Program-made: the position numbers and the translations under genes
Shown: piece by piece, positions 1 to 26,657 of the stretch
Layout of the letters: each line of letters starts with the position of its first letter
Numbering within the stretch: the stretch's first letter is position 1
Origin: a virus
Length of the DNA stretch: 45,777 nt
Direction: 5' to 3' (one strand)
IMG/VR virus record: IMGVR_UViG_3300044898_000025
Span: 1 to 45,777 of that record
Notes under the pieces: generated by a model
The model's database searches: none
Seen by the model: only the letters and a program-made list of their open reading frames with translations
Told to the model about the DNA's origin: nothing

Positions 1-127
1 TCCGTTCGACCTGGCGCAGCCCGTTGATGAGGGTTTTCGGCTTGAGCTTTTTCGTTTTCAGTTCTTTCTTGACCTGAGCGACCGGCTTACCTACGGACGC
101 GGCGTAAGCAGTGATGGCGGCCGGGGT
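1..127. repeat. Terminal direct repeat copy 1 (identical to 45651..45777); circularisation/assembly overlap
   Basis: All 127 nt at the left end recur exactly at the right end. The repeat sits inside one continuous minus-strand reading frame, so it marks a closed circle rather than a biological terminus. Confidence 0.9.
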
Positions 128-3100
128 CGGGGCGCCGGACGAAGTCGTGTAGCTCGGGGCGGAACTTGGAGCCGAGACAGAGCCGCCGCCAACCGTGACC
201 TTGTTCGGCGCGCCTTCCATCAACTGAACGTGATTGTCCTCTGCGCTGGAGCCGCCCTGTGCGGTGCCGAATGGCCGATAGAGGCCGACCGATTCATAGA
301 CCGATTCCGGCACCGCTGCCGCGCTGGCCAAGGTCGGCGCCCCGACCCCAATATCGGAGGCTTTCCCTTCGGTGTGTGGGTCATCAGGAAAGCCTCCGAC
401 TTCTACCGAGTGCTGAGGCGTACGAGCCCCCGAGATGATGTAGACGGGCTTGCCGGTCTTCTTCGAGAGCAGGAGAAGGCGAGCGACGATTTCGGGCTCC
501 TCCCCCTTCTTGACGTTCGCCGGGCCATCGGAGGTCTGGCCGACGACGACGGAGCCGCCCGCGTGGTGGATCGTGCCGGTGGTGCCCTTGCGAACGATTG
601 GCGAGCGAGCCACTCGCTTTGCCAGATGCTCAACGTGGATCGTCTGCGGAGAGGCTTCGACAGATCCGGCTTCCCGAACGGGGATACCGAGCTTCTTGGC
701 GTGAGCTTCGGCTGCCTTCAGTGCTTTACGAACCTGCGCCGGGGCCCCACCGCCCGAGCTGGAGACGCTGATCGTTCCCCCCGTATTAATGGCGCCCGTC
801 CCCCACGCGCTCGGACCTTCGATGTACGAACGAATTTCCTGTTCAGATGCGCCCGACTTTGCCAGATGGGAGATACCGACAATCGAGGACGCGGCCTGGT
901 AGGCATAGTCGCCGCCGATCTTCCCTTCCAGCCATTCAGCCGATGCTTTCGCTGCGGCTTTTGGGGTCGTGTGATTGAAGTAGCTCGACTGGCTAAAGGA
1001 AGTCGGATGCGCGGGGTAGCCGACGCCGAGCCAGTTTTGTTCCCCGGCTTCCCCACCGTTTGAAAATCCACCGCCCTCCTGCTTGACCCATTCGCCCGCG
1101 AGCTTCGGCGGGATTTTCGTGTAGTGGGAGAACCACTCGGCGAATTCTTTTTGATCCTGATGTTCGAAGCCTTCGATGCTCGGGACCGACTTCTTGTCGA
1201 AAAGCGTCTGCGCCGTTTCAAGGCGCTTCTGCACCTGCCGGGTTCGAGGCGTGGTGATCTTGCCTTCGCTGTTGAAGCGGAGCTTCCCGGCTCTCCCGGC
1301 CTGGATGAGTTCTTTGCGCGAAGGCGTGCCGAGCGTCTTCTGATGCAGCGACGCGAGGAGTTTGGGCCGGTGCGCTTCGGCGAGAACTTCGTGATGCTGG
1401 GCCTTGGTCAGCGGCTTCGCCGGACCTTTGTAATCCGCAGCCTGTGCAGGAGCCCCGCCCACGAGAGAGGCAAGAGGGCTAGTGACGGAGCCGAGCACGC
1501 TTCCGACGCCACCCGGGAGGCTGACGCTGGGGAGATGCAGTGATTCGCTCGGCGGCTTGTAGTTCAGCGCTTTCCTGTTACCTGAGCCCCCGAACCCCGA
1601 GGATTCAAACGGGCTCTTGCCGCTGCTTTCGCCGAAGCCCGAGCCTTCAAAGGCGCTTTTGCTCGAGGCCGGTTCTTCGCCCGCTGCCGTATAGCGTTCG
1701 TATTCTTCCTGGCTCTGCTTGGCGAGCGCAGGGCCACCAATCTTGCGGAGCAGCTTTTCCTTTTCCGTCCAGGCTTTCTTGTTGGTCGCCTTGAGCTTGG
1801 CGACGATCTTCTGTCTGTCCTGAATCGTCTTGGTTTCATCACCCTGCGCTTCTGACTGAGCGCTATGCCCGGTGGTGCCGATCCGCTGCTCAATCGTATT
1901 GAGCGCGTTTTCGAGTGCGCCAGCAGACGCGGGACGCGGGGTGTAAGGGTTGACAAATGACGCCCAGTTCTTGTTCGGCTTCAGGATTTCGTAGGCCTTG
2001 GAAGTCGCGCTCTGCGGGTGGGGGCTGAAGCCGTGGAAGCCAACCGAATTCTCAAGCTGCCTGACCGCCGGCGAAAGGGAGGCGGCCTGTTCGGCTGCGT
2101 TCTCCAAGATCCCGAGGAGCCCGTGGCCGGGCAGCTTTTGGTTCGTGAAGGTGTTCGTATTCGTGGCGAGAGAGACGCCGGTGTTGATCCAGGGGTTCGT
2201 CGCGCCGAGGGTTTTCAGCAGGTTGCCTTCGAGGACCGTTTGCCCGACAACGCCGAGTGGAGACATGCGCGAGCCGCTGGGGTTTTCAACGGGTTCATCC
2301 TTGGCATTGCGACGGACCGGGTTGGAGTAGGCCGTGATGCTGTCGAGGGGCGAGCTGTAGGTGACGCCGGTGACGCCCGTTGCTTTCGCCTCGGCCGCCG
2401 CGATTTTCTGGAGTTCGTTGGAGTTGCGCTGGGCGAGGAAGGCCAGCGCCGTGGCGGCGACCGGGTGGTTGACTGGGAAGGTGTGCAGCACCCAGACCGT
2501 CGAGTAGCGAATCCAGGGATAGAAGATGACAAACGGGGCGACGGCTCGCTCAGTTTTGGTGAAGGAGTTCCAGTTACCGCCGATCTTGTTGAGATTGCGC
2601 TGGAGATCGCGAGCGAGGGCGGGGTGTCTGGAGATGTAGTCGAGACGCTGGGCAGCGTTCATGCCTTTGGTGGCGTCGCTGATGACGCGCATTCCCTTGT
2701 CGAGGCCTTTGACCCCGCCGTACCAGTTCTTGAAGCCTTTGCTCGCCCTGACCGTCGCCGCGAACTCGCGCATTTTCGAGGCGTTCCAGCGATCCCATTT
2801 CCCCATCGTCTCGCCGTTGGCGAGTTTCCAAACACCTTGGCCGAAGCCAGAATGCTTGATCGCCCGGGCGGGCGCGTAGGGGTCGGAGTTGGAGAAGGCG
2901 GTGTGCGGGGTGCCCATGACTCCGGCCGAGGAACCGATCATCGCTTTGATGCGAGCCTGGGAGGCCGGGTCCATCTTCTGGATGTCCGACATCGCCTTGA
3001 TCGCCTGCGGGGCGCGGATCAGGGCGCTCGGTCCGAGTGCTGCCGCGATCGGGATGCCGGTGGCGAATAGCTGCGCGAAGACCCAGGCTGGGTCGTTCAG

Positions 3101-6100
3101 CACCAACCGGGAGGGGACGTTGGCGATCGCCCGCAACTTCGAGGGAAGGACACCTTTCAACTGCGAGACCAGCTCGTCCATCCCGGCCGAGCGGATTGCC
3201 GTGTAGGTCAACCCTTTGCCGCCGTTGTGGCCCATGATCTCGTCGCGGAGGTCGGGGTACTTTTCGACCAGCTTGACAATGCCATCCTCGCTCTTGGCCG
3301 AACGGACCTCGTCAATCATTCGCAGGGCATCAGCACTGGAAAGGTCATGGGCGCCGTTCAGCGCGGCCTTCAGGAGCGGGGTCGGGAACCACTCGGTTCC
3401 GGCCGGCATGTGGTGGGTGTCCTCTGCCCACTTGCGCTCGGCCTCGGTGGCGATGTGTTTGTAGGAGCCGTCCGGCATCCGCACCGGGGTCTTCAGGTCG
3501 TTGATGCTCGTATGGATCAGGTCGTTGAGCGCGATCTGAGTTCGGGGGGCGATAGCCGAGGAGTGGAGAACGCTCTCCAGTCGGGCGTCGGCCTCGCCGC
3601 TGCGGGCTATCTCTCCGGTCGAGAAGTGCGTGACGCGGCCAGGGAGGTCGCGCTTGACGCCGCCGCTCGAATGAGAGCCGGGAGCGCGCGGGACCTCGTC
3701 GTGTATGTGGACGGGCTCGAGCAGGCCTAGCTCTTTGTTGGCTGCGCGCTGCTCGTTGACGAAGTCGCGCTTCATCGCCCGGCCTGAACCGGGGAGGCTC
3801 GAGGAGTCGATTTTGCCGGGGTGGCGAGAGAACTTGCTGATCTCCCCGTAGAGCGCCTTGCGCTGCTTCGCCGTGGCGCGCGCCTGTTTGTAGAGGTCGT
3901 CGGCTTGAGCCTGCTCGCCTCGGCCTCTCGCGTCTCTGGCTTCCCGGCGCAGCGTCGACTCACTCGCCTTCAGGTCTTCGTATTTCTGCCAGGCTTCGTC
4001 GCGGTACCACTTGGTGCCATCGGGCTTCTTGCCGAGGATGTCTTCCGCGCGCTTGGTGACCCTCTCGGTGTCCTTGAGAATCGGCGGTTTGCCCTCTTTA
4101 GCCCGCAGATGATTGGCGAAATCGTTCTGGATGCGGAAGGGCTTGGGCTCGTAGTTGCCGGGAAGCTCTTTTGCGAGGCGCTTCTGCCCAGCGCGAAGCT
4201 CATTCGTGAGGTTGTGGTGGCGCTGATCGGCAAGGATCTCGGGCCGCTTCGTTCCCTCGTTGGTGGCGATGCGGTCGTTGATCGTCTTGTCGGGCCGGGT
4301 GATGTCGGCCGGGGCGCCGTGGTAGTCACGCAACTCTTCGAGAAGCTTCACGCCCTTGGGAGAATGCGGGAGGCCGTACTTGGCGAGAACCGGAGCCAGA
4401 GCCTCATAGCTGCGCCCCATGTCCTTGGCGAGCGGCGACATCCCGAAGCCTGCGCCTTCGCCCTTGAGCCGGCCCTTGATCCTGCTGGTAACGCCCGTCG
4501 CGTCAGGCGGCGCGCCGTGGGCGGCCTTGCGGAGGCGGTTCATCTCGATCTGGTTCCAGCCATGCGCGGTCTCTGAAGCACGGGTGGCGTCCAACGCCTG
4601 CTGGGCGCGGTCGTGGTGGGCACCGATGTGTTCGCCGAGGCCACGGAAGACGTAGTGCTCACCCGTCCCCTGGACTGGGACCGGCGGTTTCAGCACGTTC
4701 TTTTCGTGGCGGGAGCCGAGCCTGCCGCGTTCCTTCGGAGCGGTCAGCCCGTCGTTGGCTGCGCCCTCTACTGCGCTAGCGCGTTTGGCAGAGCGGCTGT
4801 TCTCGACCGCGCCTCTGACCTTCCCTCGGGTCGCCGTGTAGAGGTCTGAGCCGTGGAACTGGTGCAGGAGTGCCGGGGCCGGGAGGAGCCAGGAGACCCC
4901 CGATTTCTTCCTGACCGATTCTTCGACCTCTTTGGGATTCCCCGAGAAGAGTTCTTCGCCGAGTTCCTTGGTGCCTCCGGCGAGCGCACCCAGGGTATTG
5001 GTGAGCGGCTTGGTCGAACCCTGCAGCGCCGATTCGATCCCCGCTTCCCCCACTGCCTCTGGGGCGGTGAAGAACGCGGGCAGGGTGCGTCCGGTGGTCT
5101 CGAGCGTTTCGAGGGGGTGATGCCGGAGCGCTTCGCCCGTGCCCACGCCGAGTGCTTCAAGGTTCTTGGCGACCGGGACGTTGCCGCCCCCGGCACGGTT
5201 GACGGTGGCTGCAAGGCTGAGACCCGAGAAGGCTTTCGCCGAGTTCTCGGCGGTGCCGACCGCACCTTTGACTGCCGCTTTCCCGGTCGCCTTCGGGGCG
5301 GCCTTGGCCGCGCCTTTCAGGGCATCGGGGGTGGCTTTCAGGGCATCTTTGATCGCCTGCGGGGTGGCTTTGAGCGCGGCGGGAGCAGCGCGGAGAACGT
5401 CGGCTGCCTCGCTCGGCGCGTGTCGAAGAGCCTTGGCGACCGTGACTCCCGTCTTGCCTGCCTCGATTGCGGCCCTCGTCGCCTCGGGGATTCCCTCGGC
5501 CACCTTGGCCGCCCCCTCTCCCGCCGGGATATTGGAGAGCAACTGAAGTTCCTTGCCGGTTGGCGTGTGGAGGTTGCTGGTCCCTTCGAGATCCCACTTG
5601 AATCGCTGCTTGACCGCTTCAGCGGCGTTCTTGGCTTCCCCCTCGACGAACTTGTCCGCGGCGCCCGCGCCGGGCTGCTGCAAGCGGAGGGTCTTGTAGA
5701 GACCTGCAGCGTCATGGGCGAGCGAATCCAGCGGCGAGGATTCAGAGGCTTCCTGTTCGTGAGCGTGGAGTTTCGCGGCGGCCCGGCCGGCGGACCCCTG
5801 GGGGACGCCAACGTTGTGGGCGAGCTGCCCAGCCTGTTCTGGAGTCAGGCGCAAGCTTCGAGGGGCGGTTCCGAAGAGAGGGGTGTGGCTGAGGCCTTTG
5901 GGACCTTCGAGGGCTTTGGCTCCGGCAGCCGCGTTGCTGATCTTCGCGAGACCCTTGACACCGACGACTTTCCCCTGCGCGTTGGCAGCCTGAACCGCCG
6001 GGTGGTTGAGCAATGACTGTCGGGCTGCTGAGACCTGTTTGGCGGCCTTCGCGACCTTCGCATCTACCGAGGGCGGGGCGAGCGGGGAAGCGCTGGTGGG

Positions 6101-6463
6101 CGCCTTGTAGGCCTTGGTGACGTAGCGGTTGACCAGCTTCGCCTGTCTTGCTTCGGCCTTCTGCTGGCGGACTTCGGCACGAACGGCGGCGGGGTGCGGC
6201 GCGGCAGAGACCGGGACCCCAGCCGTTTGGTAGGCCGTCGCTGGGTATTCGTACCCCGAGGCCGAAGGCTGCTGGATATCGCGGGGACCGATCGGCACAC
6301 CGGGTTGAGGGGTGCGCCCTTCGTGTTCGTGCTGTTCGGCCGCAGACGGCGTGGCCGGTGTGGAGGGATGAGGCGTGTACTCCCCCGGCCCATGCATGAG
6401 CAGCCGGGGATTGAAGGTCGGCTTCGGCCCTTTGACCTTGACTTTGGCTTTCGGGGCGGCCAT
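1..6463 (-). CDS. Giant virion-associated (internal/ejection-type) protein, N-terminal 2154 codons; continues across the junction to the stop at 45532 (total ~2193 aa); C-terminal M15-type zinc peptidase module
   Basis: ATG at 6463..6461 lies 3 nt after the TAG of the upstream gene. Hand translation (MAAPKAKVKVKGPKPTF...) stays open to nt 1. The ORF track has no entry in this minus frame over 6.4 kb because the ORF leaves the window. Nt ~225-460 read KPVYIISGARTPQHSVEVGGFPDDPHTEGKASDIGV...AEDNHVQL (H-x6-D...H). It occupies the T7 gp16-like slot. Confidence 0.85.
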   Translation of the reverse strand, partial: MAAPKAKVKVKGPKPTFNPRLLMHGPGEYTPHPSTPATPSAAEQHEHEGRTPQPGVPIGPRDIQQPSASGYEYPATAYQTAGVPVSAAPHPAAVRAEVRQQKAEARQAKLVNRYVTKAYKAPTSASPLAPPSVDAKVAKAAKQVSAARQSLLNHPAVQAANAQGKVVGVKGLAKISNAAAGAKALEGPKGLSHTPLFGTAPRSLRLTPEQAGQLAHNVGVPQGSAGRAAAKLHAHEQEASESSPLDSLAHDAAGLYKTLRLQQPGAGAADKFVEGEAKNAAEAVKQRFKWDLEGTSNLHTPTGKELQLLSNIPAGEGAAKVAEGIPEATRAAIEAGKTGVTVAKALRHAPSEAADVLRAAPAALKATPQAIKDALKATPDALKGAAKAAPKATGKAAVKGAVGTAENSAKAFSGLSLAATVNRAGGGNVPVAKNLEALGVGTGEALRHHPLETLETTGRTLPAFFTAPEAVGEAGIESALQGSTKPLTNTLGALAGGTKELGEELFSGNPKEVEESVRKKSGVSWLLPAPALLHQFHGSDLYTATRGKVRGAVENSRSAKRASAVEGAANDGLTAPKERGRLGSRHEKNVLKPPVPVQGTGEHYVFRGLGEHIGAHHDRAQQALDATRASETAHGWNQIEMNRLRKAAHGAPPDATGVTSRIKGRLKGEGAGFGMSPLAKDMGRSYEALAPVLAKYGLPHSPKGVKLLEELRDYHGAPADITRPDKTINDRIATNEGTKRPEILADQRHHNLTNELRAGQKRLAKELPGNYEPKPFRIQNDFANHLRAKEGKPPILKDTERVTKRAEDILGKKPDGTKWYRDEAWQKYEDLKASESTLRREARDARGRGEQAQADDLYKQARATAKQRKALYGEISKFSRHPGKIDSSSLPGSGRAMKRDFVNEQRAANKELGLLEPVHIHDEVPRAPGSHSSGGVKRDLPGRVTHFSTGEIARSGEADARLESVLHSSAIAPRTQIALNDLIHTSINDLKTPVRMPDGSYKHIATEAERKWAEDTHHMPAGTEWFPTPLLKAALNGAHDLSSADALRMIDEVRSAKSEDGIVKLVEKYPDLRDEIMGHNGGKGLTYTAIRSAGMDELVSQLKGVLPSKLRAIANVPSRLVLNDPAWVFAQLFATGIPIAAALGPSALIRAPQAIKAMSDIQKMDPASQARIKAMIGSSAGVMGTPHTAFSNSDPYAPARAIKHSGFGQGVWKLANGETMGKWDRWNASKMREFAATVRASKGFKNWYGGVKGLDKGMRVISDATKGMNAAQRLDYISRHPALARDLQRNLNKIGGNWNSFTKTERAVAPFVIFYPWIRYSTVWVLHTFPVNHPVAATALAFLAQRNSNELQKIAAAEAKATGVTGVTYSSPLDSITAYSNPVRRNAKDEPVENPSGSRMSPLGVVGQTVLEGNLLKTLGATNPWINTGVSLATNTNTFTNQKLPGHGLLGILENAAEQAASLSPAVRQLENSVGFHGFSPHPQSATSKAYEILKPNKNWASFVNPYTPRPASAGALENALNTIEQRIGTTGHSAQSEAQGDETKTIQDRQKIVAKLKATNKKAWTEKEKLLRKIGGPALAKQSQEEYERYTAAGEEPASSKSAFEGSGFGESSGKSPFESSGFGGSGNRKALNYKPPSESLHLPSVSLPGGVGSVLGSVTSPLASLVGGAPAQAADYKGPAKPLTKAQHHEVLAEAHRPKLLASLHQKTLGTPSRKELIQAGRAGKLRFNSEGKITTPRTRQVQKRLETAQTLFDKKSVPSIEGFEHQDQKEFAEWFSHYTKIPPKLAGEWVKQEGGGFSNGGEAGEQNWLGVGYPAHPTSFSQSSYFNHTTPKAAAKASAEWLEGKIGGDYAYQAASSIVGISHLAKSGASEQEIRSYIEGPSAWGTGAINTGGTISVSSSGGGAPAQVRKALKAAEAHAKKLGIPVREAGSVEASPQTIHVEHLAKRVARSPIVRKGTTGTIHHAGGSVVVGQTSDGPANVKKGEEPEIVARLLLLSKKTGKPVYIISGARTPQHSVEVGGFPDDPHTEGKASDIGVGAPTLASAAAVPESVYESVGLYRPFGTAQGGSSAEDNHVQLMEGAPNKVTVGGGSVSAPSSAPSYTTSSGAPTPAAITAYAASVGKPVAQVKKELKTKKLKPKTLINGLRQVER

Positions 6464-6466
6464 GAG

Positions 6467-11683: not shown

Positions 11684-12337
11684 CTACCTCCAGACGTTCA
11701 GGCCGAGAGAGCCATGCGGGTCTGACCACGTCCCACCGACCTGACGAGGCCCATCGAAGGAATCTGCCTGAACCTCGCCGCGTGCTTTGAGCAGCCCTTT
11801 TTCCCAGATCGCTTCCCAGGTCTGCGCGGCCTGGAAGTCGTCCTCGCGCAGGAACGCTTTCCACATCGCGTAGGAGACGAGAAGCTCTTGATACTGGACC
11901 GGGATTTCAGAGATATCCGTGTCATTGACCATGTCGGCCGGGAGCTTGCGATAGCGCAACGTGAAGCTGTAGACGTTGTCGGGGGTCGGATAGAGGAAGA
12001 GTTCCCCGCCGCGCACCGAGTATCCGTAAGGGGCGCCTGAGGACGCCGGGAGGGTGTCGAAATCGCGCAGGTCATATGGGGTCAGGAGTTCGTGGCTATC
12101 GCTCCGGTAGAGGTCGACGAAGCGAGCGTAGTTTTCAGGCAGCGCGTAGCTCGCATCGGCGGCCACGGTCGTAATCGACGATTCCGCCACCTGCGTCCTG
12201 ATTTCGGAGGAGATGGCGAACTTGCGCTGGGCGTCGTTCAGCCACGTCTTGACCAGGGGTCGGTACTTGGTTTCCGAGAACTGGAAGGTCAGGACCTCGT
12301 CTTGGAGCGCCTTAAAGGAACGGCCGGCCAGCGTCAT
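11684..12337 (-). CDS. Putative head-tail adaptor / tail tubular protein A-like (217 aa)
   Basis: Assignment rests on its position after the capsid gene plus one small gene, its size near T7 gp11, and a 4-nt overlap with the upstream gene. Confidence 0.45.
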   Translation of the reverse strand: MTLAGRSFKALQDEVLTFQFSETKYRPLVKTWLNDAQRKFAISSEIRTQVAESSITTVAADASYALPENYARFVDLYRSDSHELLTPYDLRDFDTLPASSGAPYGYSVRGGELFLYPTPDNVYSFTLRYRKLPADMVNDTDISEIPVQYQELLVSYAMWKAFLREDDFQAAQTWEAIWEKGLLKARGEVQADSFDGPRQVGGTWSDPHGSLGLNVWR

Positions 12338-15085: not shown

Positions 15086-15424
15086 TTAGGCGGCTTGCTG
15101 GGAGCCGCCGGCGATCTCTGCCGCGGCTGCTGCGATGCGCGCCTGGATGTCCTGCGCCTCGCGCTGACCTGGCGAGGGACGGTCGTTGCCGACCGCTGCG
15201 CTTTTCATAGGGGTGCCGGTCCCGGTTTCGGGAGCGTTGCCCGGAGCCTGCTTGAGCGCCTCGCGGGCGCCGGGGGTGTCACGCCCCGGAGCAGGTTGGC
15301 CTAGGGCTTTCTGGAGCCCTTCGATGGCCTCGGCGGCACCTTTGGGTAGCTCGGCCCCTCGGGAGCGGTTCTGGAAGTGTTGAACAGCCTGGAGGAGCCG
15401 CTGGACCTCTGCGCCTTCGCTCAT
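15086..15424 (-). CDS. Hypothetical head-module protein (112 aa)
   Basis: ORF with a 4-nt overlap with the upstream gene. Composition is Ala/Gly/Pro-rich. Confidence 0.5.
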   Translation of the reverse strand: MSEGAEVQRLLQAVQHFQNRSRGAELPKGAAEAIEGLQKALGQPAPGRDTPGAREALKQAPGNAPETGTGTPMKSAAVGNDRPSPGQREAQDIQARIAAAAAEIAGGSQQAA

Positions 15425-15762
15425 CGACGATTGACGTCCGAGGCGACGAGATCGGCGATTGGGGCGACCTTGCGGACCCCGGCATCCGAGCGCGAGCGCA
15501 CGACGGCATTCTCGCCTTCGGCTTCGACGAAGACCCCGAAGAATCCCTTGTCGTCGCCTTTGGTGATTTCGACGAAGTGGCCGAGAACCGGAGCGCCATC
15601 CTCGCGGCGGTCATTGAGACCCGGAGGGACCGGACTCGAGACCGGAGACGCGGGAGCCTTCTTGTGCTCCTCGACGGCCTTTGGCTTGTCGGCGGCCTTG
15701 GTGGTCGAGGTTGCGGTCGTAGCCTTTTTGGGCTCGGCTTTCTTCTCTTTCGTAGCGGTCAT
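15421..15762 (-). CDS. Protein with a Lys/Ala/Thr/Pro-rich (histone-H1-like) N-terminus and a small C-terminal domain (113 aa)
   Basis: Strong SD (TAAGGAGCCACG-ATG). N-terminus reads KEKKAEPKKATTATSTTKAADKPKAVEEHKKAPA. It lies between portal and scaffold. Confidence 0.65.
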   Translation of the reverse strand: MTATKEKKAEPKKATTATSTTKAADKPKAVEEHKKAPASPVSSPVPPGLNDRREDGAPVLGHFVEITKGDDKGFFGVFVEAEGENAVVRSRSDAGVRKVAPIADLVASDVNRR

Positions 15763-15771
15763 CGTGGCTCC

Positions 15772-15984
15772 TTATTCGGGTAGCGGCGACCATGAGTCGC
15801 ACGTTTCGTTGGGTTCAACTCGGTAGTCGTAGAGCGAGCACATGTTGTGCTGGAAGTGGACGCAGGTCCCGCAGCTCTTGTGCAGGTCTTCGGTGATGTG
15901 AAGGTTGGGAGGAACGTGGCCTGAGTTCGGCTTTTCGGCGTTTCTTTCATCAGCGCCTGCATCGCTGCTTTGATCGCCACCGGG
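15772..15984 (-). CDS. Start-less 70-codon reading frame in phase with the portal gene, encoding a linker plus a 4-Cys domain (possible read-through extension or non-canonical-start gene)
   Basis: Hand translation after the portal TGA gives PGGDQSSDAGADERNAEKPNSGHVPPNLHITEDLHKSCGTCVHFQHNMCSLYDYRVEPNETCDSWSPLPE*. There is no in-frame ATG/GTG/TTG before the Cys motif. The frame ends just before the SD of the next gene. Confidence 0.45.
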   Translation of the reverse strand, partial: PGGDQSSDAGADERNAEKPNSGHVPPNLHITEDLHKSCGTCVHFQHNMCSLYDYRVEPNETCDSWSPLPE

Positions 15985-18033
15985 TCAGCCACGGGGGGCA
16001 GGAGGTTTGGGGGCGGCGTGTTCGGCGGCCACACCCAGCGCGGCTTTGTGGGATTCCTGGCCTAGCTGAAGCTGATGTTCCTGGCCGACCTGGGCCTGCT
16101 GGGATTGCATCTGAGCTTCGAGTTGCATGTCAACCTGCTGTTTCATCCGTTCGCGGTGCGCGTTGACGTGCATTTCGAAGATCTGTTTCGCTTCTTCTGG
16201 AAGCTGGCCATAGCGAGAGGTCCGCTGGAATTCCTCGTGGCCATCGACGTGTTCTTTGTCTTCGTCGAAGGCGTTGACGTTCACCGCCTGACCCTGCGCC
16301 AATAGGCGGTTCTCGCGCTGGATCTGCTGCTCGGTCGCCGAGAGACCCGCGTAGAGCTTGTCGATTCCCCCGACTTCATAGTCCTTGAAGAACTTGCGCA
16401 GATCGCGCGAGTCGGGGACAAGGCCGTACTGCATCATCGTCTGGAGGATCTCCAGCATCCCGGCCTGCTTGGCGGCCTTGGAGCGGGGCATCGCCGAGCC
16501 CGCCTGACACTCGACGGTGGGCTCTTTGCCCATCATCGTGCCCCGGAAGGCAAGGATGTCCCACTGTTCGTCCTCGCCGGCGATCCGCAAAAGGCGCTCG
16601 TCGGTGGTGAATTTCGCCCGCAGTCGGGCAAGCTTGGTCCCGGCGACCCCAAGAGAGAACTCAAGGTCCTGAATCTCAGGGCCTATCCGCGTGTCGTCGG
16701 CCTCTTGTAGGAGGTTGATAGCCGAGGCGGCGGTGATGCCCGCCGGGACGTTTGCGTTGGAGACCTCATGGAGGCCTGAGATCTCCGTCATCGAATCGAC
16801 GTAGCGCTGTTCGCGTTCGCGCACGTACTGAGGGACTTCGGGGGGCGCGAGGTATTGCGGCACGGCGTCGGTGACCGTCGAGTCGTAAAGGATTTCCTCG
16901 CCAGGGACGCCCGAGTAGTGGACGTTGGCCTGGCGGGACTTCATCAGGGCGGGGTTGCCGATCCGGTTGGCGTTCTCCTGGATCTGGGACTTGACTTTGT
17001 TGAGGCCGATCTGCGGGCCTCGAAGCTGGGTCGTGATCGCGGTCGGCCAGAAGCGGTTCGGAACCTTGACGCCCGAGAACATCACGTAGGGCATCGTGTC
17101 GATCGGGTTGTCTTCCTCGGTCAGGATTTTGTCCTGGGCCCAGACGACGCGCTTGCCCTGCGGATAGGTAGACGACGGGTTGGCCCAGAACTCATGGACC
17201 TGCACGCCCTTGTAGTTGCTCTGCGTCCCAGCCAGAAGGGAGGAGAACATCCGCGACTCGACCGGACCTGAGTGAGCTTCGGTGTCGGGCTCGAGTTCTT
17301 TGCCGTAGCGCTGCTTGATGTAGTCGGGGGAGCGCACCTTCGACTCGTAGGCTTTCTCCAGCTCCTCCATCGAAGTGGCGAGGGGGTCGGGGTAGAAGTG
17401 GAAGGGCGAGACCACGTCCACGGCTGGATCGCCGAGGGCGATCTTCTTGACGCTCATTCCTTCCGGCAAGCCTTCTTCGCCGATTTCATCTGCCTTGAGG
17501 ATTCGCCCCTGCAGTTGGACTGGCTGCCCTTGGGCGTCAACGACGACTTCGGTTGATTCGCCAACCGTCGAGTCCCAGTAGAGCTTCCAGAACCCGGCAC
17601 AGACGATGTCCGCGAAAAGCTCAGCCTGGTAGAGCTTCTGCTGGAGGGCGAGGTAGACCCAGTCGAACTCCATCTGCTTTTCGGTGATCTTGGCGGCGTC
17701 CATGTCGGACTCCGAGCCGGTGAACGGGGTTGCTACGAAGGTCGGGCGGTTCTTGACCTTGCGGGCCACGCGCGCGGACACGATTGGCAGGATGCGGTTG
17801 TCGACTTCGGTCTCACGCCACTTGGCGAGGTTCGGTCGATCAAGACGGTTCTGATTCCAGTAGAGCCACTGTTGACCGACGTAGAAGGCCGAGTTCAGGT
17901 ACCAGTCGGGCTCGAATGGAGCGCGGGCCTCCTTGAATTTGCGGAACTCCTCTTTGAGGTCGGCGACGGTCGAGTCGCCTCCCTTGAGCTTGGCGACGGC
18001 GCGCTGACCCGCTGAGTCAGTCATCGTTGCCAT
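15985..18033 (-). CDS. Portal protein (682 aa; start may be the ATG at 18024)
   Basis: Largest head-module ORF, located upstream of scaffold and capsid. ATG 18024 gives the ATGACTGA 8-nt overlap pattern seen at other junctions. Confidence 0.75.
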   Translation of the reverse strand: MATMTDSAGQRAVAKLKGGDSTVADLKEEFRKFKEARAPFEPDWYLNSAFYVGQQWLYWNQNRLDRPNLAKWRETEVDNRILPIVSARVARKVKNRPTFVATPFTGSESDMDAAKITEKQMEFDWVYLALQQKLYQAELFADIVCAGFWKLYWDSTVGESTEVVVDAQGQPVQLQGRILKADEIGEEGLPEGMSVKKIALGDPAVDVVSPFHFYPDPLATSMEELEKAYESKVRSPDYIKQRYGKELEPDTEAHSGPVESRMFSSLLAGTQSNYKGVQVHEFWANPSSTYPQGKRVVWAQDKILTEEDNPIDTMPYVMFSGVKVPNRFWPTAITTQLRGPQIGLNKVKSQIQENANRIGNPALMKSRQANVHYSGVPGEEILYDSTVTDAVPQYLAPPEVPQYVREREQRYVDSMTEISGLHEVSNANVPAGITAASAINLLQEADDTRIGPEIQDLEFSLGVAGTKLARLRAKFTTDERLLRIAGEDEQWDILAFRGTMMGKEPTVECQAGSAMPRSKAAKQAGMLEILQTMMQYGLVPDSRDLRKFFKDYEVGGIDKLYAGLSATEQQIQRENRLLAQGQAVNVNAFDEDKEHVDGHEEFQRTSRYGQLPEEAKQIFEMHVNAHRERMKQQVDMQLEAQMQSQQAQVGQEHQLQLGQESHKAALGVAAEHAAPKPPAPRG

Positions 18034-18519: not shown

Positions 18520-19815
18520 TTAGTTCGCGCTCCTCGCAACCTCGTAGTAGTTCGTCCCGTCACAGGCAAGGGTCAGCGTGTCTTCTGCCGTGGGTTCGAA
18601 GTTTTCTTTCAGTTTCAGGTTTTCGCCATCAACCACTTTTGGGGTCGAGGCAAACTTCAAAGCGACCACCGGGGGGTAGTTCGCCGGCACCGTGATTTTT
18701 TTGATTTCGGTAGTGCCGGTGACTTCCACCACTGCTTCGGCGGTAACTGCCAGCGTGGCCGCCGAAGCCACCGACCGAAACGGGAGCGTGGCGCTTCCCA
18801 GTCGCCGTAGGCGCGAGAGATCGACGCTCCCCCCAGGGGTGCCGGTATAGAGTGGGTTGGCGCTGGATTCTTCGTAGAACCCGGAGACGGTTGAACCAGA
18901 ACCCGAGCCCGTGAACCTGAGCCCCCCGGCCGTCCCGCCGCCCTTCATGAACACACCTTGGATCGTGGTGTTGAACCCCTTTGACGTGTTCCACTCGAAA
19001 CCCGGGACGTTGACCGGCGTGGTAGCCACGAAAGCGCGCCCCCCAGTCCATCGGCCGCCATCCGCGTTGATGAAGACCTGCGCAGACGACGCGCCCTCCG
19101 CCTCGCAGTTCATCGCATCGTAGGAGGCGTCGAAGCGGAAACCATAGGTAGAGGTTCCCCAAGTATGGACGCCGTAGATGACCGTCGCCGCGCCGCTCGA
19201 GCCAACGAGAAAGTTGGTCGTGGCATTCGCGATGCAAAAGCCGTTCGTGAAGTGGGCGTCGTGGATGTTGTTGACCAGCCCGTTGTTCCCGCAATTCCAG
19301 ATGCGGAAGGTGTCGAACATCGAATCCGACCCACCGGCCGCGGCGGATAGATCAGAAGCAGTCTGCTGGAGGTTCAAGCCATCCGTGTTGCAGTCATGGA
19401 TGCAGAAGTTGCTCATATACAGGCGGCGACCGTCCAGCTTCACCCCGGCTTCGCCCGAAGAATTATTCGCCTTGTTGCCGTCTATCGACAGATCGCGGGC
19501 GGCATAGTCGTCTTGTCCCCCTTCGCCGTATTGGGCGACGGAAAGCACCGAGCAATTGCTGTTGGCTCCCAGCTTCAAGCCCGATACCTGCGGTCCGTGC
19601 CCCGCAAGCGTCACGCCGGTCTTCAGCAGCACCGGTTCGGCCGTTGCAACCATCCACGGCGGGACGACAACTCGGCCTCCACCGTCTTCCCAGACCGAGG
19701 TCAGAGCTTTGTTGACCTTCGCGCCCCTGTCTGCGGTTGAGGAAGTTCGCCCGACCCAGTTGCGGAGATCGTAGAACCCGGCCGACGCCTGGCTCGAGGA
19801 GAAGGTGATCGTCAT
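18520..19815 (-). CDS. Tailspike/tail fibre with pectate-lyase-like right-handed beta-helix (431 aa from ATG 19815)
   Basis: MTITFSSSQ... start lies 4 nt after the upstream stop. Motifs ARDLSIDGNKANN, NFCIHDCNTDGLNL and IWNCGNNGL are typical of beta-helix depolymerase repeats. The track's N-terminal extension is Arg/Pro-rich shadow sequence. Confidence 0.7.
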   Translation of the reverse strand: MTITFSSSQASAGFYDLRNWVGRTSSTADRGAKVNKALTSVWEDGGGRVVVPPWMVATAEPVLLKTGVTLAGHGPQVSGLKLGANSNCSVLSVAQYGEGGQDDYAARDLSIDGNKANNSSGEAGVKLDGRRLYMSNFCIHDCNTDGLNLQQTASDLSAAAGGSDSMFDTFRIWNCGNNGLVNNIHDAHFTNGFCIANATTNFLVGSSGAATVIYGVHTWGTSTYGFRFDASYDAMNCEAEGASSAQVFINADGGRWTGGRAFVATTPVNVPGFEWNTSKGFNTTIQGVFMKGGGTAGGLRFTGSGSGSTVSGFYEESSANPLYTGTPGGSVDLSRLRRLGSATLPFRSVASAATLAVTAEAVVEVTGTTEIKKITVPANYPPVVALKFASTPKVVDGENLKLKENFEPTAEDTLTLACDGTNYYEVARSAN

Positions 19816-19819
19816 CGAC

Positions 19820-20398
19820 TCAGGTGATCCCGTAGAGGATCGGACCCTGCACGGCCGCGAGAGAGCTTGGAGTAAAGGAGGCCGGAGCAGCGGTGAGGCC
19901 CGAGCCGGCCGAACCCGATCGCAGCGTGGCGCCGCTGGTGCCGAGGTTTGCCGAAACACCGCTTGACGCGCCGCATCCGAATTTTCCCGGCGTCGTGCCC
20001 TGCGTACCCATCAAGAGGCCTACCCAGAATTCGGAGCGTTCCGCGATCGACAGGCTTTTTTCGCTATCGACGGTGATTGCGACCGTCTTTTCCCCAGCGC
20101 TCCTGAAGCCCACGCTTTGATCGGCCGAGACTCCAAGCCGGGTCCCGCCGATGCTGTAAACGGAGACGAAGCAGTTGGCGTCCTCGCTTGAGCTTGCCAC
20201 CGCTATCTGGAGCTTCACGTTGGAGATCGTCAGCGCCTTGCCCACTTTGATCCGGGTGTAGTGCTGAACGCCCGCCGTTGGCTGGAAAACCTGATTCGTC
20301 GTCGCCGGGTCGTAGGACCATGCGAGCAGACCCATATCGGTTGGCGTCCAAGCGCCGGTTTCTGGAGCCGGAGGAGCCGAGAAGGAGAATTCAGGCAT
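19820..20398 (-). CDS. Tail-fibre-associated protein (192 aa from ATG 20398)
   Basis: MPEFSFSAPPAP... start lies 1 nt after the upstream stop. Composition is Ser/Gly/Thr-rich. It is adjacent to the tailspike gene. Confidence 0.55.
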   Translation of the reverse strand: MPEFSFSAPPAPETGAWTPTDMGLLAWSYDPATTNQVFQPTAGVQHYTRIKVGKALTISNVKLQIAVASSSEDANCFVSVYSIGGTRLGVSADQSVGFRSAGEKTVAITVDSEKSLSIAERSEFWVGLLMGTQGTTPGKFGCGASSGVSANLGTSGATLRSGSAGSGLTAAPASFTPSSLAAVQGPILYGIT

Positions 20399-20399
20399 G

Positions 20400-20687
20400 T
20401 CAGGCCTCCGTCGCCGCGAGCCAGGAAACGCCCTCGCCATTGACCGTTGCATCGAGGTAGATGTCCCCCACGTCGTCGGTAGGGACTGACGCAGACTGTC
20501 CGGCACTCAGGGCGATTCCCGTACGTTCGGAGGTGGCGGCCTTGACTCCACTCCCACCGACGCAGATGACGCCGGTGTTCGTGCTGAGCGCGGTGATCGC
20601 GACGGATTCGGCTCCGGTCGATGCACCCAACTGGACTGCGGTGCCAGCCGTCGTGACGGTTTTTCGTCCGTTCTGAAGATTCGTCAT
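20400..20687 (-). CDS. Small beta-rich protein, paralog of the 18259..18519 product (95 aa)
   Basis: Sequence similarity to the 86-aa protein is visible by eye. There is a 4-nt overlap with the upstream gene. Confidence 0.6.
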   Translation of the reverse strand: MTNLQNGRKTVTTAGTAVQLGASTGAESVAITALSTNTGVICVGGSGVKAATSERTGIALSAGQSASVPTDDVGDIYLDATVNGEGVSWLAATEA

Positions 20688-21405: not shown

Positions 21406-22908
21406 TCAGGCGGCGATGCCGCCGAATTGGCCAATGTTTTCGATCTCAGGCGAGGCGAAGCGCTCTTGGTCTTCTCGCATCACCCGCTGAAGCGAGGTCT
21501 CGTTGCGGGAGGTTTGCTGTCCGGGGAGGTAGGGACGGCTCATCACCGCGTACCTGAGTGCGTCAACGGCGTGGTCGTCCTTCTTGACCGGCGCCTGCTT
21601 GCCGTCCTCTCCAGTCCTCGGGGGTTGCTTCCAGCGGTACTTCTGAAGCTCGTCGACCAAGGACGTGCAGTTGTTCTGGATGAACAGCCGCTCTTTCTGG
21701 AAGCGCTCGCGGACCCGGTTGATGCCGGCGGTGACGGAGTGCTGGCCGGCGATCGTCACGATTCCGTTGTCGGCGTACTCCATCTGGTCTGAACGGCCGG
21801 TCTGGTGAGCGCGGTTCTGCGCCGCCGGGTCGATGACGTAGTAGAGGGGCGATACGTCATAGCGGGCGTTGACTTTATGGATCTGCTCGCAGACCTGGCG
21901 GACCGTCATCCCTTCATAGGCCCCCTCTTCGAAGACCACCATCTGATCGTCGGGGGTGAGGTAGATCCAGACCACCGCACAGCGGTTACGGATTCCCGGG
22001 TCGATGCCGACGACGATGTTGACGTTCTCGGGGATCGGCCGCTGAGGAACGACATGCCGCTCGCGCGTGAAGTCCGCGTAGATCAGGCCGTGGAGAGCAA
22101 TGAAGCGCCCCTCTTTCCTCGCTGCGCGCTCCTCTTGGGAGAGCCCCAGAAGAGCCATCTCGATCTCTTTCGGACCGAGGGCGGGGTTGTCAGCCATATC
22201 GACCGTCACAACCTCGAGGTCTTTGGACTGAAAGACGTCCTTGCGAACCTGATCCCCGCGCTGCTTCCAGAGCATGTCGTAGGTCCAGGTGAGTCCCTGA
22301 ACAGGGGTCATCGTGAAGAGCAAGTCGCCCTTGCGAGCAATGACCCGCATCCGGTTCTCGTTATAGGCCCGCCAGGGCGGCTCCTCGTCGAAGTGAACCC
22401 GGTCCAAGGTCGCGCCGCCCATCTTCGCGACGTCCATCTCGTAGGTTTGGAAGAAGAACTTCGACCCGTTCTCGAAGTGCAGAACCCGCAGGTCCTTTTC
22501 GTAGGCCGATCTCCAAGAGCCCCCGACAAGTTGATCTAGGGGGAGCAGCTGTTGGAGCTTCTCAATCAGGGTGTTCTCGAGGACCGGAAAGGACTCGGCC
22601 ATGATCCGACAGAGGAACGGAGGCTGGAACTTCTTGAAGGGCTTCAGGTGATCGGGGAGTGCCGATTCATCGACCGCCTGGATCACGTCATCGGCGAGGC
22701 CCCCCGTGGTCTTCCCCGACTGGTTGCCTCCGAAGAAGCATTTCGTCTGGGCGGTGAAGGAATGGAAGGCCCGCTGCTTCTCGTGCGGTTCATAGAACGC
22801 AAGAGGGTCGTTCTGGCGCTTGTACTCCAACTCCTGAAGCGCCTGTTCAGCCTGCTCTCTCTTTGCCGCAGGGAGCCGCTTAAGGGCCTCCGTGTCGATC
22901 TGAAACAA
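21406..22908 (-). CDS. terL: Terminase large subunit (500 aa, TTG start)
   Basis: Walker A motif FFGGNQSGKTTG. Size and nuclease-half composition are typical of a large terminase. SD GGAG lies 7 nt upstream of the TTG start. Confidence 0.85.
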   Translation of the reverse strand: MFQIDTEALKRLPAAKREQAEQALQELEYKRQNDPLAFYEPHEKQRAFHSFTAQTKCFFGGNQSGKTTGGLADDVIQAVDESALPDHLKPFKKFQPPFLCRIMAESFPVLENTLIEKLQQLLPLDQLVGGSWRSAYEKDLRVLHFENGSKFFFQTYEMDVAKMGGATLDRVHFDEEPPWRAYNENRMRVIARKGDLLFTMTPVQGLTWTYDMLWKQRGDQVRKDVFQSKDLEVVTVDMADNPALGPKEIEMALLGLSQEERAARKEGRFIALHGLIYADFTRERHVVPQRPIPENVNIVVGIDPGIRNRCAVVWIYLTPDDQMVVFEEGAYEGMTVRQVCEQIHKVNARYDVSPLYYVIDPAAQNRAHQTGRSDQMEYADNGIVTIAGQHSVTAGINRVRERFQKERLFIQNNCTSLVDELQKYRWKQPPRTGEDGKQAPVKKDDHAVDALRYAVMSRPYLPGQQTSRNETSLQRVMREDQERFASPEIENIGQFGGIAA

Positions 22909-25414: not shown

Positions 25415-25885
25415 TCATCCGGACACCAAAGTTCGCGAGAGGGCGCGAGAGTGACGTTCCTTGGTGCGCTGGCTGCGGGGAGTGCTCGCCGTAGAGCTTT
25501 CTCGGCTCTCCAGCTTCGCCTGCCGCACGTGTTCAGCTACGACGCAAGCGTTCGGCGCGCTCGCTTCCAGAGCCATCCTGTCCTCGTAGAGTTTGTGGAC
25601 GCGTTCCGGCTCGGACTCATAGCTCCCGTCGTCTCTACGAACGCCTGAGATGCCGATCATGGGCCTGCTGGAGTCGTTGTCGATGCGGACCTTGGCCTTC
25701 TGAACCTTGGCAGCGCGCTTGGAGTGCCATTCGACGCGCACGTGGAAGCTAAGGCGTCCGTCCTTCGAATAGACCGGATAGCGCCGGCCTTTCCACGGCT
25801 CCGGCGCGCTCGCGGGCCAGCTGATCTTGATGACTTCGGTCCCAGCCTCGTACAGGCGCTTCCTAGTCTTCTTGCTCAGCTTCAC
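25415..25885 (-). CDS. Hypothetical protein (156 aa from GTG 25885)
   Basis: GTG overlaps the Fic TGA (GTGA) and SD AGGGAG lies 8 nt upstream. The track's longer version runs antisense-free through the Fic 3' end as an Arg-rich shadow frame. Confidence 0.55.
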   Translation of the reverse strand: MKLSKKTRKRLYEAGTEVIKISWPASAPEPWKGRRYPVYSKDGRLSFHVRVEWHSKRAAKVQKAKVRIDNDSSRPMIGISGVRRDDGSYESEPERVHKLYEDRMALEASAPNACVVAEHVRQAKLESRESSTASTPRSQRTKERHSRALSRTLVSG

Positions 25886-26367
25886 TGCTTCTGCTCCCTT
25901 GTATTGGTTGGGGTCTGCTGGGTGGAGTGAGAACCGTCCAGCGCTTCGTAGTAGGCCGAGTGGAGAAAGCCGAGAGCGAACGGGTCGCGGTCTTCGCGGA
26001 GCCGCATCCAGGCCCAGAGCGCGCGACCAGAGCGACCGTTGCCGTCCATGAAGGGGTGCAAGGTCTCGTAGGCAGCGTGGAGGGTCCACGGAGTGGCGCC
26101 GACCGATCCATTGGCGCGATCAAGGATTTCCTCAAGCCCTACGCGGATGCCCTCGCCGCCAGGCTCAGGACGGTGCGATCCGACGCGCACATTCCGGCCC
26201 TCTCGGTCTCGAAGAGCGGCACCGGCCACGGTCCAGACGAAGCGTTCAAGGTCTCGCACCCGCACCACGAGCAGTTGCATGAACCACTCGTGGACGCTTA
26301 TCTCGTCCTCAGTCGGGGCTCGCAGAATCCCCTCAATGCGATTCGATTCCTCGACGAACTCGTACAT
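25882..26367 (-). CDS. Fic-domain protein (161 aa) with N-terminal inhibitory-helix motif
   Basis: HPFMDGNGRSGR (nt 26023..26058) matches the canonical Fic motif HxFx(D/E)GNGRxxR. N-terminal SNRIEG matches (S/T)xxxE(G/N). The start MYEFVEESNRIEG forms a TGATG overlap with the upstream gene. Confidence 0.85.
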   Translation of the reverse strand: MYEFVEESNRIEGILRAPTEDEISVHEWFMQLLVVRVRDLERFVWTVAGAALRDREGRNVRVGSHRPEPGGEGIRVGLEEILDRANGSVGATPWTLHAAYETLHPFMDGNGRSGRALWAWMRLREDRDPFALGFLHSAYYEALDGSHSTQQTPTNTREQKQ

Positions 26368-26657
26368 CACTGCTCTCCTCCCTTGGTGGTCTCTGGTTGG
26401 TGCTGGGGTTTGACTCCGAGGCTGAGAAGGGCGAGAGCGTCGGACCCGGTCGGAGCGAACGCCTGACCGCGTTTCGTCAAGCGTTCGTTGTGGCCGTGCC
26501 ACAGCCCGAAGCTTTCGAGTCTCGCTTCCGCAGCGGCTAGGTCAGCGAGGGCGAAGTCAGGATCGGAGAGGTCAATCAGCCAAGGCTGGACGGTGGTGTT
26601 CTGCACAGACAGCCCTCGGTCAATCCAACGCAAAACTTCTTCGACATGCCCGCTCAT
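26367..26657 (-). CDS. Hypothetical protein upstream of Fic (96 aa)
   Basis: ORF that is translationally coupled on both sides. Confidence 0.6.
   Translation of the reverse strand: MSGHVEEVLRWIDRGLSVQNTTVQPWLIDLSDPDFALADLAAAEARLESFGLWHGHNERLTKRGQAFAPTGSDALALLSLGVKPQHQPETTKGGEQ

Follow-up and report, generated by a model that had tools for sequence, protein, structure and literature searches.

The open frame that continues for 70 codons behind the portal stop codon of this viral DNA (IMG/VR record IMGVR_UViG_3300044898_000025, the whole stretch of 45,777 nucleotides being referred to as the window) is very probably most of a separate small gene for a protein of about 73 aa that has been broken by a one-base indel, and not a case of recoding. 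The stop codon read-through that had been proposed for this position is not a real feature but an ordinary frameshifted gene, and the missing base probably reflects either a mistake in the assembly or a mutation of recent date. The case calls for caution, as in GC-rich phages, where start codons may overlap the preceding stop, the gain or loss of a single base can mimic recoding, a plausible "linker" included. The small gene itself belongs to a widespread family (180 representatives) that is not covered by Pfam at threshold and the four-Cys domain of which resembles high-potential iron-sulfur proteins (HiPIPs) in sequence profiles and in the predicted structure.

The open frame behind the portal stop codon

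All genes of the region lie on the minus strand. The portal gene aligns with the portals of related phages from end to end and in one frame (71-85% identity), and it terminates at a TGA (15987..15985) that is followed by a C, in agreement with the stop context that had been given for it. UGA-C is a weak and leaky terminator context in E. coli, and the leaky stop that a read-through would need is thus present; at the equivalent site, the relatives carry TAG-C or TGA-C. Also the description of what follows was accurate. In phase with the portal there are 70 sense codons (15984..15775), translated PGGDQSSDAGADERNAEKPNSGHVPPNLHITEDLHKSCGTCVHFQHNMCSLYDYRVEPNETCDSWSPLPE, and then a TAA (15774..15772), with the cysteines spaced C-x2-C-x7-C-x12-C-x2-W. 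A codon scan of this frame detects no ATG, GTG or TTG before the first Cys, where only an ATC (codon 30) and a CTG (codon 34) occur, and the sole ATG is codon 48, downstream of the second Cys. The frame ends just in front of the Shine-Dalgarno sequence of the next gene (AAGGAG-N5-ATG), the ORF of which itself spans 15421..15762(-).

An open run of 70 codons behind a stop codon is nothing exceptional in a window with 63% GC, as such runs make up 17-20% of the stop-to-stop intervals and their expected probability is 0.22, and a chance level of about 20% speaks against taking the open frame as such for a sign of read-through. The conserved domain that the last 56 codons encode, however, exceeds what chance would give; these codons are 55-77% identical to the homologues P0001-P0005 (tblastn E 1e-17 to 1e-32); with all 70 aa as query, homologues score at E 1e-11 to 1e-26. 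The preceding part of the frame, PGGDQSSDAGADER, which had been regarded as a low-complexity linker, is noncoding in the portal frame and is the out-of-frame translation of a conserved N-terminus, AIKAAMQALMKE. Read as this N-terminus, the 17 codons have a coding-like GC content by codon position (0.71/0.38/0.75), whereas these bases have values of 0.79/0.62/0.38 when read in the portal frame. In six relatives the continuation of the portal frame produces the same "..GDQS.DAGADE..." string and then junk until it meets a stop 14-72 codons on, and the Cys domain is encoded in a different frame.

A separate small gene with one missing base

When the 70 aa are used to search for homologues, only separate proteins of 63-75 aa are found, which begin with M/V-A-(D/S)..IKAAMQ..MKENAEKPN, and eight related phage contigs (L001-L008) have a separate and normally initiated gene for 63-76 aa at this locus, which is intact in all of them. 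The original prediction itself had named a separate gene in homologous phages as the observation that would speak against a portal extension, and because exactly this is found, the read-through is not supported. In L001, L002 and L005-L008 the small gene comes directly after the portal, with an (A/G)TGGCT(GA or AG) start that overlaps the portal stop; L003 and L004 have the same start motif at an intervening small gene, the Cys gene being slightly farther from the portal. In L002 and L005, gene callers place the start at this very codon. The start codon of the relatives (ATG or GTG) is situated about 37 codons before the first Cys. Common to the window and its relatives, which form a group of phages whose portal is P22-like and whose adaptor is SU10-like, is the order of a P22_portal gene, the small gene, genes for about 105-115 aa, a scaffold-like gene, and the gene of the major capsid protein. 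The small gene thus sits between the portal and the scaffold/capsid genes, and the syntenic homologue of the gene that is next in the window lies after the small gene in the relatives.

The same gene can be traced in the window (Table 1). The conserved GTG at 15992..15990 is present, so that the region does not lack an initiation site of its own, as it should in case of a read-through. The codons that follow match the N-termini of the homologues, for example VADAAIKAAMQALMKA in P0002. At the indel, the coding-like pattern of GC by codon position changes frame, with 0.54/0.41/0.77 in the 56-codon C-terminal part, and the tblastn matches of all homologues to the window begin at 15942/15939, which corresponds to residue 16-19 of the homologues. 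In a DNA alignment (MAFFT), the window shows exactly one 1-nt gap, at GAAAG-AAAC, where L001 reads GGAAAAC; the exact place of the missing base within the A-run is ambiguous. All eight relatives cross this point in a single frame, and if one A is inserted at the site, a 73-aa ORF results that aligns over its full length with the homologues. The start of the gene overlaps the portal stop, and it is the loss of this one base that shifts the other 56 codons into the portal frame; an indel, which had been mentioned as one of the alternatives to read-through, is thus the explanation that is borne out.

Table 1. Features of the region between the portal gene and the gene that follows it in the window.
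Feature	Coordinates	Strand	Description and basis
Portal gene	15985..18033	(-)	682 aa; ORF list, Pfam P22_portal 4.3e-10, phrog_156 portal 2.7e-25
GTG start of the small gene	15990..15992	(-)	within GTGGCTGA, 8-nt overlap with portal stop; motif conserved in relatives
First 17 codons of the small gene, VADPVAIKAAMQALMKE	15942..15992	(-)	frame one base off that of the portal; matches homologue N-termini
Supposed linker, PGGDQSSDAGADER	15943..15984	(-)	out-of-frame reading of the small-gene N-terminus; GC by codon position non-coding-like
Indel site, AAAGAAAC	15940..15947	(-)	1 base fewer than relatives, A-run 15943..15941
Last 56 codons of the small gene and TAA	15772..15942	(-)	NAEKPNSGHVPPNL...CDSWSPLPE and stop, in portal frame; translation, GC, homology
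HiPIP-fold four-Cys domain (predicted)	15790..15912	(-)	PPNL..C-x2-C-x-H-F..C-x-L-Y-x-Y-R..C-D-S-W; profile, model, fold search
Cys codons of the domain	15873..15871, 15864..15862, 15840..15838, 15801..15799	(-)	
Next gene, 113 aa	15421..15771	(-)	including Shine-Dalgarno GGAG 15771..15768 and ATG 15762..15760; sequence, ORF list

The base was most likely lost by a sequencing or assembly error, which we consider probable but by no means certain, as the site lies in a homopolymer and thus is typical for such errors. A very recent real mutation can be considered tentatively. It would be a sub-case of the same gene structure, with the small gene being inactivated or dispensable in the window phage, and the GTG product would then consist of 17 native and 60 out-of-frame residues (VADPVAIKAAMQALMKETPKSR...) and end at a TGA that overlaps the ATG of the next gene. 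The genes of portal, scaffold, capsid, adaptor, terminase and others (about 10 kb) each align with the relatives in one frame, and no other frame break is found in the roughly 10 kb that can be covered by tblastn with the ORFs of the relatives, which indicates that the assembly is not generally noisy and in this respect agrees with a real deletion; a scan of GC by codon position for further frame breaks is too noisy for calls in the early-gene half of the window. The locus also is somewhat flexible, considering the greater distance of the gene from the portal in L003 and L004. On the other hand, the small gene is intact in 8/8 relatives, and downstream of the deletion all family-invariant residues and the coding-like GC pattern are kept and there are no further defects, which is why any real deletion must be very recent. 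Exact look-ups with the portal, capsid and 113-aa proteins of the window gave no independent copy of the genome in the collections searched, and the DNA pattern around the site, with either three or four A's, has no match in viral, metagenome or genome collections. Protein-pattern scans of genome and metagenome collections found no relatives, and in 50,697 GenBank phages, which include no close relative, tblastn with the 70 aa gave only chance-level matches (E>=2) and blastn with the portal region gave none.

Recoding and non-canonical initiation

A programmed read-through of the portal UGA-C, which would equip a fraction of the portal subunits with a C-terminal four-Cys domain, is very improbable. 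In its favour, the domain shares the frame of the portal in the window and has no canonical start in that frame, a little product may form at a stop of this kind, and as a genuine fusion of a portal with the domain exists in another lineage (P0140), such a product could function. However, the in-phase position is the automatic consequence of one lost nucleotide in a gene that overlaps the portal stop in the +1 register, the arrangement is not conserved, with the domain being out of phase with the portal in all relatives, and the linker of the extended portal would be nothing but a conserved N-terminus read out of frame, with its own GTG present. The A1 protein of phage Qbeta, which is generated by read-through of a UGA, is comparable in that an in-phase frame without a start encodes a folded domain, but the arrangement of the window occurs in no relative, there is a start in another frame, and a single inserted base restores the gene.

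Even less credible is a programmed -1 frameshift or a transcriptional slippage at AAAGAAAC that would join the 17 codons to the Cys domain via the trans-frame peptide MKENAEKPNSGH. A shift at this A-rich site would recreate the full-length homologue exactly, but the zero frame, with its codons ATG AAA GAA ACG, contains no X-XXY-YYZ heptamer, and after a slip the tRNAs would have to re-pair with GAA/AGA or AGA/AAC. Also polymerase slippage would require an A-run longer than the 3 bases present, no stimulatory RNA structure lies downstream (fold z = -0.13), and 0/8 relatives need the shift. The -1 frameshift of the lambda G/GT genes likewise joins two frames to one full-length product, as would be required for the full-length homologue here, but the slippery heptamer, the stimulatory structure and the conservation of the shift are all missing in the window. 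Finally, translation of the Cys domain alone from a CUG or AUC start in the portal frame, as had been offered as another alternative, can practically be dismissed: the two codons do lie upstream of the first Cys, but neither is preceded by a Shine-Dalgarno sequence, the product would lack the conserved N-terminus as well as the PPNL motif that is invariant in the family, the relatives use canonical ATG or GTG codons, and such a start is unnecessary because of the authentic GTG in the other frame.

The four-Cys domain and its resemblance to HiPIPs

The frameshifted small gene belongs to an unnamed family that is defined here by a profile (A3/A4) as a HiPIP-like mini-domain of phage head modules, and the profile recovers 180 cluster representatives at E<=1e-3. 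In a 36-member alignment, the PP and three of the cysteines are invariant, while the fourth is a Cys in about 90% and a Ser in 3/36 of the sequences, and residues of the window fill every invariant column. With the pattern PPNL(R)-x5-8-C-x2-C-x-H-F ... C-x-L-Y-x-Y-x-V ... V-C-D-S-W, a significant match to the profile and its location in a head module, the window gene has all characteristics of a family member.

HiPIPs are periplasmic electron carriers with a Tat signal and a [4Fe-4S] cluster of high redox potential. The resemblance of the Cys domain to these proteins, which had been noticed already from the cysteine spacing, holds up on the level of profiles and of the predicted fold. When the family profile is compared with PDB sequences, it matches only HiPIPs (1hlq at E 0.046, PioC at E 0.67), and hhalign aligns all four cysteines with the cluster ligands of the C. 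vinosum HiPIP at a probability of 66%. An AlphaFold model that was calculated from the 36-sequence alignment has a pLDDT of 87.3, whereas an earlier model from a 6-sequence alignment was unusable (pLDDT 44). In a Foldseek search of the PDB with the model, HiPIPs account for 11/13 matches and occupy ranks 1-11, with probabilities up to 0.96, TM scores of 0.41-0.62 and E values of 0.045-2.9, although no match reaches E<=0.001, and individually the HiPIP matches are marginal in all searches (E 0.045 to 3). The order of the four cysteines, the flanking aromatic residue and the predicted fold thus correspond to HiPIPs, but the thresholds of the curated Pfam and NCBIfam families are not reached. The window protein has no match to Pfam HIPIP at E<=1, and the best that was obtained for this Pfam family is a match of 1/36 family members at E ~0.08-0.09, which is below threshold. 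Also Pfam HPIP_like gives no match above threshold, and with the window sequence alone nothing significant is found in Pfam, PHROGs and NCBIfam.

In comparison with HiPIPs (Pfam PF01355; PDB 1ISU, 3H31, 1HLQ, 1HIP; PioC 6XYV), the phage domain shares the arrangement C-x2-C ... C ... C-x2-(W/F) and the aromatic residues after the second and the fourth Cys, but the loop between the second and the third Cys comprises 7-10 residues, in contrast to 13-16 in HiPIPs. The phage family is furthermore distinguished by an invariant PPNL(R) motif that precedes the cysteines and by the Ser that replaces the fourth Cys in some members. The phage protein also has no Tat signal peptide, the N-terminus of the 73-aa protein is by inspection not signal-peptide-like, and its gene lies beside that of the portal in a phage head module. 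Among the weak Pfam matches, DUF7140 (PF23601) is the most frequent and is hit by the four-Cys region of 7/36 family members (profile positions 4-41 of 42), but all these matches are far under the gathering score (~14 bits vs 27, best E 0.038), and membership is not established.

Natural fusions and a possible role at the portal

Overlapping start and stop codons are typical of translational coupling, and the small late gene, starting at the GTG inside GTGGCTGA, would probably be translated by termination-reinitiation coupling with the portal gene. After the loss of one base from the A-run of AAAGAAAC, the sequence would encode the 17 correct codons of VADPVAIKAAMQALMKE and then continue with 56 codons in the portal frame. 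The intact protein is predicted to consist of a short N-terminal helix and a domain of about 45 aa with the HiPIP fold and the four-Cys ligand pattern, and it most likely would bind a [4Fe-4S] cluster, with zinc as the second choice. By analogy with natural fusions in other phages, and in view of the conserved synteny, the small protein probably has its function in association with the portal or in the procapsid interior. If Fe-S binding can be confirmed, this would mean that a metal cofactor is associated with the portal or the capsid interior, and to our knowledge the role of such a cofactor has not been studied; searches of the literature on HiPIP-like proteins of phages, portals or proteases gave no relevant result.

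The natural fusions contain the same module of about 45 aa (PP.LR..C..C..F..C..Y..V..VCD.W) and are encoded in the same head-morphogenesis neighbourhood as the window gene. In P0140, a portal of the Phage_portal type (PF04860) carries two copies of the domain at its C-terminus and is encoded in a TerL-portal-ClpP-capsid module, and P0057 is a fusion of portal, domain, MuF and ADP-ribosyltransferase. Portals with a fused Cys domain thus exist in another lineage, but homologous portals of the window's own lineage do not have it, and there the domain is always encoded as a separate gene. Unlike the arrangement in the window, these are true in-frame fusions without a stop codon, and the portal fusion belongs to the Phage_portal and not to the P22_portal family. 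The fusions show that a portal bearing the domain is viable. Should the deletion be real, it would have placed a putative Fe-S head protein behind a leaky UGA-C, so that a few portal subunits would gain the domain by read-through, but it is highly unlikely that the window represents such an intermediate on the way to P0140-type fusions. In P0027, P0033, P0063 and P0080, the domain is fused to S78 prohead proteases, and in general, the domain modules travel with phage head genes and have repeatedly been fused to portals, MuF, prohead proteases, and toxin/effector domains.

An apparent one-base deletion in a small gene next to the portal

The portal gene ends with a TGA at 15987..15985, followed by a C on the minus strand, and its frame then continues through 70 sense codons to a TAA at 15774..15772, just upstream of the AAGGAG-N5-ATG of the next gene. 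The original prediction, which proposed this frame as a possible read-through extension of the portal with a four-cysteine domain, described the sequence correctly: the translation is identical to the one given there, the cysteine spacing is C-x2-C-x7-C-x12-C-x2-W, and the portal frame has no ATG, GTG or TTG ahead of the first cysteine. The open frame alone means little, since in this GC-rich DNA stop-to-stop intervals of at least 70 codons make up 17-20% of all.

When a large protein collection was searched with the 70 residues, five proteins were found (E 1e-11 to 2e-26), all of them free-standing, 63-75 aa long, and beginning with M/V-A-(D/S)-..-IKAAMQ..MKENAEKPNSGH.PPNL before the Cys motif. 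Three further independent loci came from IMG/VR, and the small gene is intact in eight of eight relatives. The homologue contigs share with the window the order terminase, several genes, P22-type portal and small gene; downstream come one or two genes encoding ~105-115 aa, a scaffold-like one (~260 aa) and a capsid gene of ~414 aa. In the six relatives that have the small gene directly after the portal, its start codon lies within (A/G)TGGCT(GA|AG) and the overlap with the portal stop is 8 nt. The window also carries GTGGCTGA at this stop, and translation from the GTG at 15992..15990 yields the conserved N-terminus, VADPVAIKAAMQALMKE, in a frame one base off that of the portal.

The DNA alignment with two relatives (L001 and L002) contains one single gap of 1 nt in the window, at GAAAG-AAAC, and in tblastn every homologue begins to align only at 15942/15939, with its residue 16-19. 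With one A inserted in the run 15943..15941, the ORF becomes 73 aa long and matches the homologues from end to end at 57-78% identity. Codon-position GC changes frame at the same site: upstream it is coding-like in the small-gene frame (0.71/0.38/0.75) and not in the portal frame (0.79/0.62/0.38), downstream it is coding-like in the portal frame (0.54/0.41/0.77). The low-complexity linker PGGDQSSDAGADER between portal stop and Cys domain is the out-of-frame reading of AIKAAMQALMKE, and the portal frame of the relatives has the same "GDQS.DAGADE" string, then junk and stops instead of the Cys domain. Its overlap with the portal stop places the small gene in the +1 register, so that loss of any one base within the gene brings what follows into portal phase. 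The feature is an ordinary small phage gene with a one-base deletion, and the indel, which the original prediction had kept as a fallback, is supported by the relatives.

Origin of the frame break

The missing base is probably an error, as the site is a homopolymer, the gene is uniformly intact in the eight relatives, and all invariant residues and the coding composition are untouched downstream. A recent real mutation is the less favoured but still quite conceivable origin: comparison with relatives over ~10 kb of other genes brought up no second frame break, so that the assembly is not generally indel-prone. The window's own proteins have no record in the contig collection, and a DNA pattern with either three or four A's matched no near-identical sequence in viral, metagenome and genome collections. 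Translated out of frame from the small-gene GTG, the sequence is open for 77 codons and its TGA overlaps the next ATG (ATGA; 15759..15762, minus strand), so a 77-aa aberrant product would be made if the deletion is real.

Recoding in any form is very improbable: read-through is refuted by the separate, normally initiated gene of homologous phages, a refuting condition named in the original prediction itself, is not a conserved arrangement and is needed to explain nothing; a -1 frameshift would restore the small protein, but no slippery heptamer is formed by the zero-frame codons AAA GAA ACG, a run of three A's is too short for the polymerase to slip, folding of the 100 nt downstream is no more stable than that of shuffled sequences (z = -0.13) and no relative requires it; and a product started at CUG or AUC would lose the invariant PPNL motif.

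A HiPIP-like domain family

Among 1.84 billion cluster representatives, a family profile built from six sequences matched 180 proteins at E<=1e-3, most of them 50-130 aa long and about a quarter larger, with the ~45-aa module internal or C-terminal. Its consensus is PPNL(R)-x5-8-C-x2-C-x-H-(F/Y)-x6-10-C-x-L-Y-x-Y-x-V-x3-(Q/E)-V-C-D-S-(W/F), in which PP and three Cys are invariant and the fourth Cys is found in ~90% of members. No curated family matched at threshold; the commonest weak match was DUF7140, and HIPIP and HPIP_like were hit by single members only (E about 0.08-0.09).

The resemblance to HiPIPs suggested in the original prediction is supported: it agrees across three tests, each match being marginal individually. 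Among PDB sequences at E<=10 the profile found only two matches, both HiPIPs with aligned Cys (1HLQ, E 0.046; PioC, E 0.67), and hhalign against C. vinosum HiPIP gave a probability of 66% with 4/4 Cys on ligand positions. An AlphaFold model from 36 sequences (pLDDT 87.3) retrieved 13 PDB entries, of which the first 11 are HiPIPs and the twelfth is the benzylsuccinate synthase complex (chain 4pkf_B), and its matches among predicted viral structures include prohead proteases, zeta-toxin proteins and XkdF-like proteins. By its predicted structure the domain is thus of the HiPIP fold. It was not filed in the Pfam HIPIP family because the score is below threshold, the Cys2-Cys3 loop is much shorter than in HiPIPs, a signal peptide is absent from the small protein, and any cluster binding is putative.

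Natural fusions and genomic setting

Other phages carry the module as part of head-morphogenesis proteins, in one polypeptide chain. Larger proteins with the module among the profile hits include P0057, P0027, P0033, P0063, P0080, P0060, P0083 and P0010. A true gene fusion has given another lineage, that of P0140, a portal with this domain, encoded in a TerL-portal-ClpP-capsid module; the window's lineage keeps the domain as a separate gene. The fusions, the conserved place beside the portal and the overlap of start codon and portal stop suggest that the small protein may work with the portal or be delivered into the procapsid.

Features of the window, of related contigs and of module-bearing proteins
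Feature	Location	Strand
Large terminase	21406..22908	minus
P22-like portal	15985..18033	minus
SU10-type adaptor	11684..12337	minus
Long frame, open over at least 2155 codons and running off the window end	1..6466	minus
ORF pair (within 18520..20506)	19820..20506 / 18520..19959	minus
ORF pair (within 25415..26541)	25882..26502 / 25415..26089	minus
Additional small genes, one or two per contig (37, 50, 68 aa), between portal and HiPIP-like gene	L003:3750-4008 and L004:3802-4008	
Large terminase called as 841-aa product	L004:1-465	
P0140, 654-aa Phage_portal-family portal, two tandem module copies at C-terminal end	L017:2360-4324	
P0057, 1498-aa polyprotein: portal, module, MuF domain, ADP-ribosyltransferase		
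P0027, P0033, P0063, P0080, S78 prohead proteases bearing the module		
Further module carriers: 2H-phosphoesterase/Acb1-like proteins, AAA ATPases		

All genes of the 45.8-kb window are on the minus strand, its GC is 62-66%, and the genes are those expected of a podovirus-like phage. Two ORF pairs overlap by about 140-200 nt, which may reflect either ordinary nested starts or additional frame breaks; no alignment of relatives to either pair was obtained. The long frame at the window end has a Peptidase_M15_3 match at residues 1990-2043 of the translated stretch, near the C-terminal part, and probably encodes a giant protein of the virion or of DNA ejection that includes a cell-wall hydrolase domain. 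Among the relatives, the small genes intervening in L003 and L004 show that direct coupling of the HiPIP-like gene to the portal stop is not universal, and a weak LAGLIDADG_3 match in the L004 terminase suggests an intein or homing-endonuclease insertion.
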